Below are positions 3,669 to 48,031 of a stretch of 48,031 nucleotides of DNA, piece by piece. Both the position numbers and the translations under genes were made by a program. The stretch's first letter is position 1; each line of letters opens with the position of its first letter. This DNA is from Candidatus Omnitrophota bacterium (GTDB lineage: Bacteria > Omnitrophota > Gorgyraeia > Gygaellales > Profunditerraquicolaceae), in assembly GCA_026387385.1 (NCBI GenBank), contig JAPLLU010000091.1:1-48031 (forward strand), written 5' to 3'. A model generated the notes under the pieces. The model made no database searches. It was not told where the DNA came from and was given only the letters and a program-made list of their open reading frames with translations.

Positions 3669-3770
3669 AAATCCCAAATTCAAAACTCAAGTTTAGCATT
3701 TGGCACTTCGACTATGCTCAGTGCCAATGGTGAGCGCAGTCGAAACATTGGAAATTGGAACTTGGGATTT
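3669..3770 (+). repeat. Family B structured module (copy B1) inside an outer AT-rich stem
   Basis: Core 3697-3751: catttggcac TTCGACTATGCTC a gtgccaatg gt GAGCGCAGTCGAA acattgg. Outer arms aaatcccaaattcaaaactcaag / ggaaattggaacttgggattt. Confidence 0.85.
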
Positions 3771-29832: not shown

Positions 29833-31005
29833 TTATAACGACTTTGCGATTGCAATGCGTTCGTCAACAGACGGATGGTCAAAGAAGAAAAATCTGATTA
29901 TAGGATGGGGATTTCTATCTGCGAGATTTTGGGAAGACAGCTTTTCCATCATAGAAATGAATGCCTCTTTTAAACCCGTTACTTTAAGCGCCTCTAAATC
30001 CGCATTTCTTTCGAATCTGCGGCTGATATAGTTCTCAAATGGCTGCATTACTATCCCGAAAATAACAAAATACATTAAAATAACCGGCAAGGCTGCAATA
30101 CCCCATAGTGATGACAGACGGAATATGCCCAGAACATAGTTGTTCGTCATAAATATAATATAAAAAGACAGCATTATAGCTAAAGAATTCACCAATATGA
30201 GCTTGACCAGGTGTCTCAACCTATAATGTGCAAATTCATGGGCCAGGATTACTTCAATCTCATCGTAACTATACTTATCCTTTAAGGTATCGCTTAATAT
30301 CACCCGTTTAGTAGCCCCTAAGCCCACAAAGGCGGCGTTTGCCTTGACTGTCTTTTTGCTAAAATCTACCTGAAAGACATCCAGAATCTTTACCCCGTTA
30401 GAAATCTTGTTGTTTTTTCTTGAAGCTTTGGTATTTCTAACGGGGTTTACCTTCATTTTATCTGCCAATTTTATTATGCGACCCCTTAACACCTCATCGG
30501 AAAGCCTCTCATATTTAAAGAATAAGGGGATAACTATAATCGGCACTAACTCTGCCATAATCAAACTAAAGAATATCCAGAATAAAGAAATTATCAACCA
30601 CCAGGTAAAGAAAAAGTGTCTTATTATATAATAAAAAGCGCTTATTAGGATAACGGCAATGATATATGATATAATGCCGGCTTTAATCTGATCTTTCAGC
30701 CAGCTAGCGACTTTCTGGTTGGATAGGCAGAACTTGCGTTCCAGGGTATATGAACGGTAAAAGTTTAGAGGAAAATTCAATAAGTAATATGCGAGGTAAA
30801 CTATAAAGATATAAGCGGAAACTGTTAGATAATTATTAGCTATAAACCCCGATAAGGCCTGAGCGAGAATTTTAGATAAACCTGAGGCCGCAAATACAAA
30901 AAGAAGCAAAAAAAGATAGACTATATCTATAATAGCCGTAGAGTATTTAAGGCGTGAGTATCTTTTGGCTTTGTCCGGCTGAACACCTTTACTAGGGCTA
31001 TCCAT
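29833..31005 (-). CDS. M48-family (Ste24/HtpX-like) zinc metalloprotease, carrying an in-frame palindromic-element insertion
   Basis: 390 aa, polytopic: HEFAHY (HExxH), NAAFVGLG..KRVILSDTL, FFFDHPSVDERI. Residues NPVRNTKASRKNNKISNG are encoded by hairpin G4. Confidence 0.85.
   Translation of the reverse strand: MDSPSKGVQPDKAKRYSRLKYSTAIIDIVYLFLLLFVFAASGLSKILAQALSGFIANNYLTVSAYIFIVYLAYYLLNFPLNFYRSYTLERKFCLSNQKVASWLKDQIKAGIISYIIAVILISAFYYIIRHFFFTWWLIISLFWIFFSLIMAELVPIIVIPLFFKYERLSDEVLRGRIIKLADKMKVNPVRNTKASRKNNKISNGVKILDVFQVDFSKKTVKANAAFVGLGATKRVILSDTLKDKYSYDEIEVILAHEFAHYRLRHLVKLILVNSLAIMLSFYIIFMTNNYVLGIFRLSSLWGIAALPVILMYFVIFGIVMQPFENYISRRFERNADLEALKVTGLKEAFISMMEKLSSQNLADRNPHPIIRFFFFDHPSVDERIAIAKSL
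30393..30445 (+). repeat. Family G short hairpin (copy G4) inside the M48 protease CDS
   Basis: ccccgttagaaat (30393-30405) / atttctaacgggg (30433-30445): a perfect 13-bp stem with the same sequence as the G1 outer stem and the same flanks, ta-CCCCG...CGGGG-tttac. Confidence 0.88.
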
Positions 31006-44045: not shown

Positions 44046-45897
44046 TTATCTTCCTCAGATACACCATTAAGATTGAAATAGCCGCAGGGGTGACTCCAGA
44101 AATGCGCGATGCCTGGCCTAAATTAAGCGGTTTCAATTTATTCAATTTTTCCTTTATCTCGCGGGAAAGGCCGGAGATATCAGCATAATCCAAACCCTGA
44201 GGCAATTTTATCTTCTCTAAATTCCTAAACCTCCCTACTTCTCTTAACTGTCTTTCTATAAACCCGGAATATTTTACCTCAATTTCTATTTGCTGGTAAG
44301 CAAATTCTGGTATATCTAAATTGAGGTGATCCAGGCTTCTTAAATTTACTAGAGTTATCTCTGGCCTCTTCAGGAGCTCCTCTATAGTAACAGGCTTTTT
44401 TATGGGCTTGGTTTTTAAACGCTCCAGCTCCCTGTTAAATTCTAGACTTGGCTTAAGGCGTGTATTTCTTAAAATATTGATTCCCCGCTTTATTGCCTCA
44501 GTTTTCTCTTGTGTCTTCAGGTAATCTTCTTTTGTTATCAAGCCTAAATCATAACCGATTTTATTAAGCCGTAGGTCAGCATTATCTTGGCGTAAAATCA
44601 GGCGATATTCAACCCGAGAAGTAAACATCCTGTATGGCTCATCTGTGCCTTTGGTGGTCAAATCGTCAATTAATACCCCGATATAACTACTCGCCCGGTC
44701 CAAAATAAGCGGCTCTTTGCCTTTTATGCGTAAAGCAGCATTAATTCCGGCAACCAACCCTTGGGCTGCAGCTTCTTCATAACCTGTGGTACCGTTAATC
44801 TGTCCGGACAGATATAAATTTCTGAATAATTTTGTCTCTAAGGTGGGGTAGAGTTGCGTGGGTTCGACTACTGTATGTTCTATCCCATAACCAAACCTGA
44901 TTACTCTTACCTCTTTTAACCCTTCTATGGAATGCAGCATTTCTAATTGCACGTCTTCCGGAAGGCTAGTGGATAAGCCGTTAGGATAAACCTCATCAGT
45001 TTCATAACCTTCCGGTTCTAAAAATATCTGGTGCCTTTCTTTATCCGCAAACTTCACGATTTTATCTTCTATGGAAGGGCAATATCTTACGCCGGTAGCC
45101 TTGATTATTCCGGCATACAAAGGAGAACGGTTGAGATTATTCTTAATAATATTATGTGTATTTTGATTGGTATAAGTAATATGGCAAGGTACCTGCTTCT
45201 GAGTGATTTCTTTAGTTGAGAAAGAAAACGGGCACGGAGAAGGATCTGCCTCCTGGACGATAAGCTTAGAGAAGTCTATCGTTTTCTTATCCAGGCGCGG
45301 ACAGGTCCCGGTCTTAAACCTAAGCAGATTGAACCCCAGTTCTTTTAGGTTTTGCGCCAAACCAAAGGAGGCCGGCTCATTGATCCTGCCTGCGCTAAAA
45401 TGGTTTAAACCCACATGAATAAGCCCGTCTAAAAATGTTCCCGGGCAGATAATTACCGTATCGGAATTAATCGCTTCGTTTTTGTCGGTAACTATCCCTA
45501 TTACTTTTGTGTCATCAATTATTAGTTTTGTTGCTTCCGCTTCCTTTATAAAAAGACGGTCTTCGTTTTCAACTATCTTCTGCATATATTGCTGATATCT
45601 ATATCTATCTACCTGAGCGCGTAAAGATTGCACTGCCTCACCCTTAGAGGCATTTAACATCCTGAATTGAATACCGCAAGAATCTGTTGCATGCGCCATT
45701 TCTCCGCCGAGGGCATCTATTTCTTTTACCAGCTGACCTTTGCCAATACCGCCAATTGCCGGATTACAACTCATCAGGCCTATGGTATTTTTTTTAAAGG
45801 TCACCATAAGCGTGTTACATCCCATCCGGCTAGATGCTAAAGCAGCCTCTATTCCAGCATGCCCTGCGCCAATGACTATAACATCGTATTTATCCAT
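44038..45897 (-). CDS. mnmG: tRNA uridine 5-carboxymethylaminomethyl modification enzyme
   Basis: 619 aa: [47 protein letters not shown]. Confidence 0.93.
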   Translation of the reverse strand: MDKYDVIVIGAGHAGIEAALASSRMGCNTLMVTFKKNTIGLMSCNPAIGGIGKGQLVKEIDALGGEMAHATDSCGIQFRMLNASKGEAVQSLRAQVDRYRYQQYMQKIVENEDRLFIKEAEATKLIIDDTKVIGIVTDKNEAINSDTVIICPGTFLDGLIHVGLNHFSAGRINEPASFGLAQNLKELGFNLLRFKTGTCPRLDKKTIDFSKLIVQEADPSPCPFSFSTKEITQKQVPCHITYTNQNTHNIIKNNLNRSPLYAGIIKATGVRYCPSIEDKIVKFADKERHQIFLEPEGYETDEVYPNGLSTSLPEDVQLEMLHSIEGLKEVRVIRFGYGIEHTVVEPTQLYPTLETKLFRNLYLSGQINGTTGYEEAAAQGLVAGINAALRIKGKEPLILDRASSYIGVLIDDLTTKGTDEPYRMFTSRVEYRLILRQDNADLRLNKIGYDLGLITKEDYLKTQEKTEAIKRGINILRNTRLKPSLEFNRELERLKTKPIKKPVTIEELLKRPEITLVNLRSLDHLNLDIPEFAYQQIEIEVKYSGFIERQLREVGRFRNLEKIKLPQGLDYADISGLSREIKEKLNKLKPLNLGQASRISGVTPAAISILMVYLRKING

Positions 45898-45902
45898 ATA
45901 AG

Positions 45903-46079
45903 AGCGTAAAGTGTAAAGCTAAAAGCGCCTGCCTACCGGCAGGCAGGTAAAGTTAAATCTTAAAACGTAAAACTTTAAGTTTTGAGGGTTGATGGTTCGA
46001 CTACGCTCGCCATCAACCCTCAAGCGAAGTCGAAGGGTTGAGTTTTAGTTTTTCGCTTTACGCTTTAAGTTTTAAGCTT
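45903..46079 (+). repeat. Family A palindromic repeat (copy A4) carrying a nested family-B module
   Basis: The first 83 nt differ from A5 at 4 positions. A block of about 58 nt (45984-46042) is absent from A5, after which the shared tail ttttagtttttcgctttacgctttaag resumes. Confidence 0.92.
45984..46042 (+). repeat. Family B structured module (copy B2), nested in A4
   Basis: gagggttgatgg TTCGACTACGCTC g ccatcaaccctc aa GCGAAGTCGAA gggttgag. The conserved boxes match B1, and the enclosing stem has a completely different but still complementary sequence. Confidence 0.85.
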
Positions 46080-46089
46080 ATTTATTGTA

Positions 46090-47373
46090 CTACTCTTGGG
46101 CGAACTTTACAAGAAGAGGTAGTATCTCTTGGCCCTTCATTTCGCCCAATGAGCCTAGTTTAGCTGCTTTCTCAGAAAAACTTAAAGAGCCATCAGGCTT
46201 AATATTGTTACCTGCGATAAGTAATGGTACGGGGTCGCTTGAGTGGGCCTTAATGTTGCAGACAGTAGAATGGTCGGCCGTTACAGCGATTACGGTGTTA
46301 GCGATATCGAGTTCGAGAAGTAGGTTAGCAAAAAAGAATTTATCTATTGCCTCGATAATCTCTTTCTTCTTGTTAAAATCACCGTCGTGAGCAGGCTCAT
46401 CCGGGCCTTTGATATGCACATAAATACCGTCGTATTTCTTCAGAGAATCTAATGCTATCTTTGCCCAAACAGGATAATCCACATCCAGGTGGCCGCAAGA
46501 CGAAGGCACATCAATTACATCTATACCGGTCAAAAGAGCGATGCCTCTTTCTACAGGCATTTCCACGAATGAACCGAACTTTAAATTATAAAGATCGCCT
46601 ATTTTGGGAAATTGCGGTAGATGGTCACCGGCATCACGGGATAAAATTATATCTGCCGCGAGCTTATTCTCGGAAATCCTTTTCTTATTTACATGGGATT
46701 CCGAAAGCACCTTATGCGATTTCTGCGTAAACTCATTCAAAAGAAGAGCAGCTTCTTTGGCTAGAGGGGAATTCTCATAACCGGGCATAGGTTTTGCTTC
46801 TTCAACAAAATTTTCAAATTTCTCTTTGGCCACGCCGAATACCCCTTCACGGGCATAAGCAGGATCAGTATTAGTTATCCAGCCGGATAATTTAGAGCGC
46901 ATACCTCTTATAACCAGGACTCCTCTATGTCCGATGGTATTCTTAAACTCAAAAGTCGCACTTGACAGCGTAACTTTTGAGTTTATCTCTTTGGATAAAG
47001 CGACTGCCTCTTCGGTGCTTAAATTTCTCCCCACCCTACGGTCTTTTATGGTCTTGGCATCAGATTCAACCGTGGCAAAATTTACACGCAGGGCCAAATT
47101 GCCGTCGTGTATACTTAAACCCTCTGCAAATGCCTCTAAGGGACCTCTGCCTGTATAATATTTGTGCGCATCGTAACCCAAAAGACTTATTACGGCAATG
47201 TCAGACTCAGGGGCAATGCCTTTGGCCACAGGATAGACTAAACCTGTTTTACCTGTTTGTGCGAGCCTGTCTATATTAGGCGTGAGTGCCGCTTCAAGCG
47301 GGGTCTTGTTGCCCAGCTCTTTAATAGGTAAATCACCTAGGCCGTCAAGTACTACGTATAGTATTTTCTTCAT
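46090..47373 (-). CDS. apgM: Cofactor-independent phosphoglycerate mutase, archaeal type
   Basis: 427 aa: MKKILYVVLDGLGD, VHIKGPDEPAHDGD, TADHST. Confidence 0.85.
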   Translation of the reverse strand: MKKILYVVLDGLGDLPIKELGNKTPLEAALTPNIDRLAQTGKTGLVYPVAKGIAPESDIAVISLLGYDAHKYYTGRGPLEAFAEGLSIHDGNLALRVNFATVESDAKTIKDRRVGRNLSTEEAVALSKEINSKVTLSSATFEFKNTIGHRGVLVIRGMRSKLSGWITNTDPAYAREGVFGVAKEKFENFVEEAKPMPGYENSPLAKEAALLLNEFTQKSHKVLSESHVNKKRISENKLAADIILSRDAGDHLPQFPKIGDLYNLKFGSFVEMPVERGIALLTGIDVIDVPSSCGHLDVDYPVWAKIALDSLKKYDGIYVHIKGPDEPAHDGDFNKKKEIIEAIDKFFFANLLLELDIANTVIAVTADHSTVCNIKAHSSDPVPLLIAGNNIKPDGSLSFSEKAAKLGSLGEMKGQEILPLLVKFAQE

Positions 47374-47381
47374 ATCTTTTT

Positions 47382-47509
47382 AGCGTAAAGTGTAAAGATA
47401 AAAACGCCTGCCTACCGGCAGGCAGGTAAAGTTAAAGTTTAAAACGTAAAACTTTAAGTTTTGAACTTTAGTTTTTCGCTTTACGCTTTAAGCTTTAAGC
47501 TTTACGCTT
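47382..47509 (+). repeat. Family A palindromic repeat, short form (copy A5)
   Basis: agcgtaaagtgtaaagataaaaacgcctgcctaccggcaggcaggtaaagttaaag...ctttacgctttaagctttaagctttacgctt. It lies between nrdJ and apgM. Confidence 0.92.
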
Positions 47510-47518
47510 CTTGCGATT

Positions 47519-48031
47519 TTAACACTTCGAGAAACCGCAGGCATGACATTTAACACAACCTTCCTCATGACGCAATGCTCCGCCACAGTCAGGACAAACC
47601 CCTACAATATTTCTTTCTTCGCTAAAACCAAAATCTGAAACAGTGGCCTCATCGCTATATGAATGCTTCATGGCTACTTGCATAGCATTTTCCGGATCAA
47701 AAGAAACCTGTTGTGCGGTTATGCCATTAGCCAGTCTTTTCTCAACCACGCGGGCAATAGCATCTGCGCAAGAAAATATTCTCTGGCCCTTCTCCCAGGA
47801 AGGCGAAGGACAACGGATATTACGCAATTGTTCAATAATGGACTTTACTTCAATCCCGGAGCGGAAACCTAAAGAAACCAGACGGCCGAGTGCTTCAAGT
47901 TGACTTGCAGCACAACCGCCGGCTTTACCCATTTGGGTAAAAAGCTCAAAAGGCCTTCCTTCTTCATCAATATTAATGGTAACGTAGAGGTTGCCGCAAC
48001 CTGTTGAGACCTTGGTTGTTGTTCCGGTAAT
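47519..48031 (-). CDS. nrdJ: Adenosylcobalamin-dependent (class II) ribonucleotide reductase, C-terminal part; the 5' end lies outside the window
   Basis: The frame is open to the window edge: ITGTTTKVSTGCGNLYVTINIDEEGRPFELFTQMGKAGGCAASQLEALGRLVSLGFRSGI... It ends with a C-terminal CxxC...CxxC zinc ribbon (CPDCGG..CVKCHACG). Confidence 0.88.
   Translation of the reverse strand: MTGTTTKVSTGCGNLYVTINIDEEGRPFELFTQMGKAGGCAASQLEALGRLVSLGFRSGIEVKSIIEQLRNIRCPSPSWEKGQRIFSCADAIARVVEKRLANGITAQQVSFDPENAMQVAMKHSYSDEATVSDFGFSEERNIVGVCPDCGGALRHEEGCVKCHACGFSKC

Follow-up and report, generated by a model that had tools for sequence, protein, structure and literature searches.

Insertion sequences of the IS200/IS605 family, such as IS608 and ISDra2, recognize hairpins and insert beside a tetra- or pentanucleotide which resembles the end of the element; a "guide" inside the element matches this target. 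The small dispersed repeats SDR1-8 are reportedly mobile repeats of 21-27 nucleotides (nt) which share a predicted hairpin and show compensatory changes and nested insertions, and they are said to be reported only in Nostocaceae. In the Ssn system, SsnA of Neisseria meningitidis, a small GIY-YIG nuclease, is flanked by NTS hairpins; a motif lies near 71% of the ssnA homologues, and the stem of NTS is conserved while the identity of the loop is dispensable (Chenal et al. 2025, PMC11893778). Defining features of the system are a nuclease of the CDD family cd10448 and site-specific cutting of single-stranded DNA only. Here we analyzed two short modules, B1 and B2, in a stretch of 48,031 nt of a Candidatus Omnitrophota genome (the window; contig JAPLLU010000091.1, C22 in our numbering). 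The assembly, GCA_026387385.1, comprises 1.57 Mb in 149 contigs. B2 is nested in A4, a copy of a palindromic repeat which we call family A.

The repeat to which B1 and B2 belong is a precisely inserting DNA element associated with one clade of nucleases. The most likely reading of the B modules is that they are selfish or mobile DNA rather than an RNA switch. B1 and B2 themselves are probably gene-free copies of a tiny inserting DNA repeat which is cognate to one UPF0213/YhbQ-like GIY-YIG clade. No earlier description of the loop-conserved family was found in Rfam, and no paper was found with the related loop variants searched. Four such variants (TCGACAAGCTCAGG, TCGACAGGCTCA and their reverse complements, none of them the own loop of B1 and B2) were looked for in the literature, including two REP surveys, and no mention of them was found.

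Architecture of the B modules

The unit of the family is a hairpin composed of a variable stem and a fixed loop of 12-14 nt, T-TCGAC-NNN-GCTC-A. A B module consists of two units in opposite orientation in the order X-S1-L-S1'-X'-S2-L'-S2'-X. The usual form of the family is such an inverted pair of 48 nt (16 codons), and the size of the modules ranges from 48 to 56 bases. In compact pairs both hairpins share the central 4-nt X', and the flanking X is the reverse complement of X'.

B2 was found to be composed of TTGA (45982-45985), GGG TTGA TGGT, the loop TCGACTACGCTC (45997-46008), GCCA TCAA CCCT, the loop cAAGCGAAGTCGA (46021-46033) and AGGG TTGA (46038-46041). The host tetranucleotide TTGA thus recurs as the last 4 nt of the insert, and its reverse complement TCAA is situated at the centre (46013-46016). 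B1 follows the same plan, as the reading of this DNA from sequence only had proposed: TTGG (3700-3703), CACT, the loop TCGACTATGCTC (3708-3719), AGTG CCAA TGGT, the loop GAGCGCAGTCGA (3732-3743) and AACA TTGG (3748-3751), with hairpin 1 at 3700-3727 and hairpin 2 at 3724-3751. In B1 and B2 the 5' arm of hairpin 2 shares the 4-nt X' with the 3' arm of hairpin 1. A covariance model of the unit (R1) matched B2 at 45987-46018 on the plus strand and at 46011-46043 on the minus strand, and in the whole window it matched only the four units of B1 and B2. The box pattern occurs four times in the window against 1.3 expected. No terminator-like or promoter-like features were found in the regions of B1 and B2.

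B1 and B2 are oppositely oriented relative to their minus-strand operons. Because of the quasi-symmetry of the modules their orientation is nearly ambiguous, the plus strand of B1 aligning with 35 of 52 identities to the minus strand of B2 and with 33 of 52 to its plus strand; by stem type, B1(+) corresponds to B2(-). Hairpins matched in this way share the loop-proximal TGG/CCA, and their outer 3-4 base pairs (bp) differ with compensation (CCAA/TTGG vs TTGA/TCAA). The sequence-only reading, which found stem 1 entirely different yet complementary in the two copies, therefore in part compared non-homologous hairpins. It had also described a downstream partner box able to pair with the loop box in an H-type pseudoknot. 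This box is indeed complementary to the loop box, because the element is an inverted pair of one hairpin; it is the reverse complement of the loop box and forms the loop of the second hairpin, and a pseudoknot is not supported. In the same way the third segment, for which mutually exclusive folds had been suggested, is the 3' arm of the second hairpin. Its alternative pairing results from the inverted-pair geometry, and the arm overlap behind it is present in B1 and B2 but in only 17 of 115 doublets across phyla; many lineages possess a spacer or a 6-nt palindromic centre instead. The minimum-energy fold of B2 is a stem 1 of 14-16 bp (z = -4.4 to -5.3). That of B1 is a duplex between the two boxes (L:L') with a z of only about -2, a fold which is not common to B2.

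Table 1. Positions of the B modules and of the associated family-A elements in the window.
Feature	Position	Strand	Description
B2	45986-46041		56-nt block in A4, missing in A5; inverted pair of loop-conserved hairpins
Host tetranucleotide of B2	45982-45985	+	TTGA (X_L) at the insertion point
B2 hairpin 1	45984-46021	+	TGGT type; arms 45984-45996 / 46009-46021; loop TCGACTACGCTC 45997-46008; minimum-energy fold
B2 hairpin 2	46013-46041	-	CCCT type; loop box read on minus strand; arms 46013-46020 / 46034-46041; loop 46021-46033
B1	3700-3751		TTGG + 48-nt doublet; leuA-aroE spacer, minus-strand operon
A4	45903-46079		Family-A palindromic element hosting B2
A4 core hairpin	45928-45947		CCTGCCTACCGGCAGGCAGG; terminator-like on gene-sense (-) strand
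A5	47382-47509		Empty-site copy of A4; junction directly 3' of TTGA (47461-47464)

Insertion sites

Four pairs of filled and empty sites were found. In the window, A4 (45700-46400 read) and A5 (47370-47530 read) are colinear except for the 56 nt of B2, which bears out the earlier statement that A4 equals A5 plus an inserted block. The empty junction in A5 lies at 47464/47465, with ..aagttTTGA before it and acttt.. after it, and the two bases past the junction differ between A4 and A5. An aminotransferase gene is uninterrupted in all 20 inspected relatives which possess a clear ortholog, where the protein reads ..PG(T/S)AFG before the site and K.. after it; in the source genome it is split by 48 nt which follow GCATTCGG and end in ..CCATTGG. 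In a gene for an Fe-S protein, relatives read ..AIHV(I/V)D before and NLA.. after the site (e.g. ATT GAT AAT), and the filled copy carries 48 nt after ATTGA, ending in ..GGGTTGA. At the N-terminus of a MiaB-like protein, which starts with MKT(I/V)KF.. in relatives, several of them with ACC ATT AAA, the insert follows ACCATTAA and ends in ACTATTAA. In all four pairs the host site ends in a tetranucleotide (TTGA, TTYGG or TTAA) which is the same as the last four bases of the insert and is the reverse complement of its centre.

The same relation was observed among compact doublets from the source genome, its relatives and other phyla. A direct repeat of just 4 nt flanks the doublet in 29 of 82 orientations, against 2.9 expected. 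X, X' and X agree in 16 compact doublets, where X is TTGA, TCAA, TCGA, TTAA, CGAA or CCAG. X is also fixed within subfamilies, being TTGG in B1, in the doublet on contig C81 and in a copy in the relative G018, and TTGA in B2, in C8, C24, C43 and C29 and in copies in G029 and G024. As X is constant and complementary to the centre, the element's own sequence appears to set the insertion site, directly or through microhomology, and the site does not appear to be duplicated from a random target.

Two other readings of the sites were considered and rejected. Homology to the target beyond 4 nt is striking in C131, L186 and A5 (8/8, 7/9), but over the 82 orientations runs longer than 4 nt are at chance level. 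The central tetranucleotide is not a host sequence that was there first and received a hairpin on either side, because the empty sites bear X in direct orientation.

The 4-nt rule is complicated by three doublets situated directly 5' of tRNA genes or between them (C125:2291-2360 in the source genome, L183 in G029 at C26:1195-1434, and L033:2375-2416). Here the X arm shared by the hairpins measures 5-8 nt and is the same as the start of the downstream tRNA, and the stem copies the acceptor stem. A general tie to tRNA genes was not found, a tRNA gene lying near only one of the 120 doublet loci listed (7 tRNA genes in 837 kb).

Association with a clade of GIY-YIG nucleases

In 15 loop-rich genomes, the small GIY-YIG genes form two clades with support of 99/99. 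A loop lies within 400 nt of the gene for six of the 13 members of one clade (clade II) and for none of the 11 members of the other, so that all six loop-linked genes fall in one clade. The association was replicated independently in 80 metagenome loci, which were fetched by two peptide patterns of the subclade alone. A loop was found within 400 nt of the gene in 53 of the 80 loci, against none of the 80 for a backwards control motif, and in 192 kb the loci contain 201 loops against 3 controls, about one loop per kb. On the upstream side the closest copy (L' on the sense strand) is 0-50 nt from the start of the gene, and on the downstream side the closest copy (L) is 0-50 nt from its stop; full doublets often occur on both flanks. 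Copies bracket the gene on either side in Nodosilinea, Pseudanabaena and Scalindua, and in Nodosilinea sp. P-1105 (L248:1170-1400) eight loop-variant hairpins (GGC-TTCGGCTACGCTCA-GCC) form a tandem array with a period of 25 nt directly downstream of the bracketed gene. Within 4 kb of the 120 doublets listed, a search in the opposite direction found neither a GIY-YIG gene nor a gene family which recurs; such a doublet-first search is uninformative because the repeats outnumber the genes hundreds to one.

The source genome possesses six small GIY-YIG genes, four of which belong to the other clade. The protein encoded on contig C53 (about 2700-2984) is the only one of the six which scores better with the profile of the loop-linked clade (80.5 bits) than with that of the other (63.5 bits). 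Among solved structures, the uncharacterised UPF0213 proteins 1ZG2 and 1YWL are nearest to it.

The four genes of the other clade (C106:350-562, C113:14042-14245, C68:4798-5004 and C146:352-564) lie within or next to tRNA genes, between duplicated tRNA halves, an arrangement which resembles a tRNA-targeting mobile cassette. On C106, for instance, the GIY-YIG gene is preceded by the 5' half of a tRNA-Arg(CCU), which extends to the anticodon loop, and is followed by the full tRNA.

Stem covariation and distribution across phyla

To sample the stems, the search pattern fixed the loops only, so the stems were free to vary and the sample is unbiased in this respect. In 150 units from at least 12 phyla, 78% of the cells in the stems were paired against 50% after shuffling, and the covariation score was 0.649 against 0.175 in shuffled sets, none of 500 shuffles scoring as high; slid controls reached at most 0.234. 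The loop-adjacent positions 1-3 were paired in 93-94% of all 236 unique units. The stems show 4-6 pair types per position while the loop is invariant. The compensatory changes expected from the first two copies were thus found in further ones, and the boxes are conserved far beyond B1 and B2. Of the earlier conclusion that structure is under selection, the covariation of the stems is supported; selection on an RNA pseudoknot or switch is not. The variable NNN of L and L' agree in 59 of 115 doublets against 21.9 expected. The boxes are 6 to 16 nt or more apart, and single hairpins and tandem arrays also occur.

An exact-pattern scan with one genome per species gave at least 120 loci. The matches listed come from Gammaproteobacteria, Planctomycetota, Bacteroidota, Chloroflexota, Cyanobacteriota, Acidobacteriota, Patescibacteria, Desulfobacterota, Aquificota, Omnitrophota, Spirochaetota and others, and doublets were found in at least 12 phyla. 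Near-identical subfamilies are present in Omnitrophota metagenome-assembled genomes (MAGs; L049, L083, L112). The loop occurs 821 times in a Leucothrix MAG (in 2.9 Mb), 461 times in Pseudanabaena, 309 in a Chloroflexales MAG, 255 in a Desulfobacteraceae MAG, 206 in an Aquificaceae MAG, 154 in Nodosilinea, 143 in Scalindua, 129 in Calothrix NIES-2100 and 51 in Treponema saccharophilum DSM 2985. Counts per genome range from 15 to 821, the control pattern giving 0-11, and in each genome counted the loop is as frequent on the forward as on the reverse strand. Among 31 relatives of the source genome the distribution is patchy, with 0-21 loop copies each. The whole viral collection yielded only two matches to the repeat, and carriage by phages is not supported.

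The family in the source genome

The pattern TTCGAC-N2-3-GCTCA occurs 21 times in the genome and its backwards control does not occur. The covariance model recognized about 29 units at 13-14 loci, and there are about 10 clean doublets besides longer chains. Five copies of B2 type on four contigs (two on C8 and one each on C24, C43 and C22) are at most one base or one indel apart over 52 nt; these doublets were copied whole, stems included. The subfamily of B1 also includes C81:2375-2430 and the copy in G018. Four loci lie in frame within genes, namely those for the aminotransferase (PSTMLRTNGERSRTIG), the Fe-S protein, a Sua5-like protein and the MiaB-like protein, and in the last two one doublet is nested in the loop of another.

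The core of family A is the commonest repeat of the genome with about 103 copies. Elements with and without B are both present, and only about five A elements carry B, which lies in either orientation and not always equally far from the core. This makes B independent of A, in agreement with the earlier suggestion that the module moves independently of its host. On the gene strand the core hairpin of A (CCTGCCTRCCGGCAGGCAGG) continues into a T-rich tail, like an intrinsic terminator, and its window copies are at 45928-45947 and 47407-47426.

A loop variant of the B hairpin occurs in a second repeat family (GGGATTATCCCTG-TTCGCTTACGCTCA-CAGGGATTTCGC...), with copies at C10:29653, C46:15658, C56:2813, C79:3378 and C82:4550. 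On C121 (1560-1900), a divergent GIY-YIG gene is situated between the inverted repeats ACCCCACACCCAG and CTGGGTGTGGGGT, which match the start of this second family. In the window, an in-frame hairpin in an M48 protease gene (30393-30445; ccccgttagaaat...atttctaacgggg) belongs to another family and lacks the TTCGAC..GCTCA loop.

Proposed mechanism and alternative explanations

By analogy with SsnA and NTS, the nuclease would read the conserved loop on single-stranded DNA, either extruded or replicating, and nick near the foot of the hairpin. Recognition through the loop rather than the stem is suggested by the freedom of the stem to vary. The geometry of the doublets suggests that the central X' may pair with a matching host tetranucleotide, by which the insertion site would be chosen. 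One 48-nt unit closed on itself would form a dumbbell with a 12-bp stem (S2'-X-S1 with S1'-X'-S2) and two complementary loops, opened at X. Such a dumbbell might integrate where the host X pairs with X', or might be copied from a 3' end terminating in X, and either route would give the observed junctions, unit-length inserts and occasional chains. In the source genome, the lone clade II gene on C53 may act in trans, or the copies may be relics. A bolder proposal is that the hairpin and the UPF0213/YhbQ-like GIY-YIG clade together form a self-propagating single-strand DNA element, the GIY-YIG counterpart of REP/RAYT and IS200/IS605, whose 48-nt dumbbell integrates where a host tetranucleotide pairs with the central 4-mer. 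We hold this to be doubtful. If true, the repeat would be among the smallest mobile elements known, with a target which can be reset by changing four bases, and a large family of structurally solved, uncharacterised nucleases would gain a function.

Several observations weigh against a nuclease-linked element with a 4-nt target. In the doublet L185 (relative G025, C1:1130774-1131011) the left flank, centre and right end all read TTCA in direct orientation, which breaks the complement rule. Canonical loops flank no small GIY-YIG gene of the source genome, neither that on C53 nor the other five. No small GIY-YIG gene was found in the loop-rich Leucothrix MAG (821 loops), in the isolate T. saccharophilum DSM 2985 (51) or in G029 (16); the partner is therefore either dispensable for the persistence of the repeat or missing from those assemblies. 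Among the 31 relatives, loop counts correlate weakly with counts of GIY-YIG genes (rho 0.40) and about equally with those of Y1 transposases (rho 0.35). We know of no strand-joining activity of GIY-YIG nucleases, so such a nuclease alone cannot explain insertion, and the mechanism proposed for it here rests on analogy. The design is moreover opposite to that of NTS, as the B family conserves its loop and leaves the stem free (PMC11893778).

The strong covariation of the stems and the invariant loop are also what a structured RNA would show, whether kissing hairpins, an H-type pseudoknot or a switch selected in the transcript, for instance in processing or stability of operon mRNA, or a mimic of the tRNA T-loop read by a universal RNA enzyme. 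The excess of matching NNN in L and L', the location of many copies between operon genes and a loop which starts with UUCGA and is T-loop-like (with a weak match to the tRNA model of 20.3 bits, below the gathering score of 29) could be taken in the same sense. But covariation can arise from selection for hairpin formation or from templated correction in DNA palindromes; an RNA function is not required for it. The strands which B1 and B2 present to their mRNAs are opposite and their minimum-energy folds differ, B is free of terminator-like features, copies lie in frame inside coding sequences and are present or absent at orthologous sites, forward and reverse counts are equal, and there is no excess near tRNA genes. 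Rfam gave no match for B1 or B2: at the gathering score only three tRNAs were found in the window, and in E-value mode nothing was significant for the two modules. In-frame copies, patchy spread, opposite orientations and clustering near a nuclease are traits of DNA-level mobile repeats and not of a regulatory RNA, which we regard as very improbable here. Less credible still, to the point of being nearly dismissed, is an ordinary miniature inverted-repeat element of a DDE transposon. It would account for the inverted boxes of about 16 bp near the ends, as terminal inverted repeats, and for the direct repeat of 4 nt flanking the insert, as a target-site duplication; plain duplication, however, does not predict an X which is constant in each subfamily and complementary to the centre, and neither the varying distance between boxes nor the single hairpins and tandem arrays fit it, nor does the lack of a recurrent gene family around the listed doublets.

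An origin without any enzyme seems unlikely, though less so than the other alternatives. Here the doublets would multiply and retain their stems through template switching in replication, by the correction of quasi-palindromes and by copy choice through microhomology at the 4-nt X, and the GIY-YIG gene would merely lie among pre-existing hairpins or target them. Microhomology of 4 nt is present at every junction, the stems of the three tRNA-adjoining doublets copy the first 5-8 nt of the tRNA as local templating would, coordinated changes of X, X' and X are possible in one templated step, and loop-rich genomes without the nuclease exist. Left unexplained are the constancy of a 14-nt loop from Aquificota to Patescibacteria and the clustering of about one loop per kb around a single nuclease clade, and four bases of homology are weak for efficient copy choice. 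Movement in trans by a RAYT or an IS200-like Y1 transposase through single-stranded hairpins, with the flanking and central tetranucleotides as cleavage site and guide, would suit the inverted, REPIN-like doublets and a target which matches the end of the element and is complementary to a 4-mer within it, comparable to the guides of IS608 and ISDra2. Y1_Tnp matches were present in 14 of 14 loop-rich genomes and in 6 of 14 control genomes, but these genes are common across the lineage anyway (21 of 31 relatives), and the source genome, with 21 or more copies of the repeat, has no Y1_Tnp match at an estimated completeness of 98%. A loop lies within about 2 kb of only one of 32 Y1 genes examined in relatives and loop-rich genomes, and the stem foot of B1 and B2 bears no GTAG or CGTC head, GTAG occurring only inside some loops. 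We thus consider a REP/REPIN-type element of this kind quite improbable. As a separate observation, the loop-rich genomes G024, G032, G035 and G040 carry 8-12 copies of unusually long (220-340 aa) open frames with a Y1_Tnp domain, which are not flanked by hairpins.

The mobile DNA reading bears on more than this locus. With up to 821 copies in 2.9 Mb the repeat is abundant; it occurs in many phyla and lies in frame within essential genes. Its signal of covarying stems and conserved boxes belongs to the biology of DNA-level repeats and warns of false calls of RNA motifs in repeat-rich small genomes. With the link to a clade of UPF0213/YhbQ type, both the role of these small nucleases and the question of what moves or maintains tiny repeats become testable with oligonucleotide assays. 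If the 4-nt centre sets the insertion site, the repeat would be of interest as a programmable tool for single-strand DNA, as proposed for Ssn.

Comparison with known systems

The systems closest in kind are REPINs, the Rickettsia palindromic elements (RPE) and the small dispersed repeats of Nostocaceae. Like REP and REPIN sequences, the B repeats are short palindromes, often in inverted doublets, with high copy number, no gene of their own and subfamilies within a genome. They differ in having no GTAG or CGTC head, no RAYT in the source genome and no bracketed Y1 gene among those examined elsewhere, and in conserving the loop across phyla, whereas REP sequences are lineage-specific. With IS200/IS605 elements they share a specific short target (a tetra- or pentanucleotide) resembling the element's end and matched within the element, and hairpins as recognition structures. 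In contrast, no HUH/Y1 enzyme is linked to the B family, the element is only 48 nt long, and its hairpins are inverted copies and not two subterminal hairpins on the same strand. Like RPE, the B repeats are small palindromes tolerated in frame in essential genes, where they add a short peptide; they show no sequence relation to RPE, which are 100-150 bp long and confined to one genus, while the B unit measures 24-48 nt and is spread across phyla. SDR1-8, compared here by their description, are reportedly likewise small mobile hairpin repeats which are nested and inserted in other repeats. Inverted boxes and a 4-nt direct repeat, as might be expected of a miniature element of DDE type, are present in the B family; X is complementary to the centre, and no recurring gene was found near the 120 doublets listed.

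The closest published system is Ssn/NTS (2025). In both, a small single-domain GIY-YIG gene is flanked on both sides by a hairpin repeat which is scattered genome-wide in tens to hundreds of copies and across phyla, and the rates of association are similar in range, 71% of ssnA homologues (PMC11893778) vs 66% of the loci for the B family. The motif SRM (HGTCWY..YYVSBRH..WNVSBRG..RNCYNB) has no match in B1 or B2 on either strand and four in the 1.57 Mb of the genome. Unlike SsnA, the nuclease clade linked to B is nearest to the UPF0213/YhbQ structures 1ZG2 and 1YWL, and its cleavage is putative; the B repeats, moreover, also insert in frame into genes. On balance, the family appears to be an Ssn/NTS-like nuclease-hairpin repeat of a different design, in which the loop is conserved and the stem is free.

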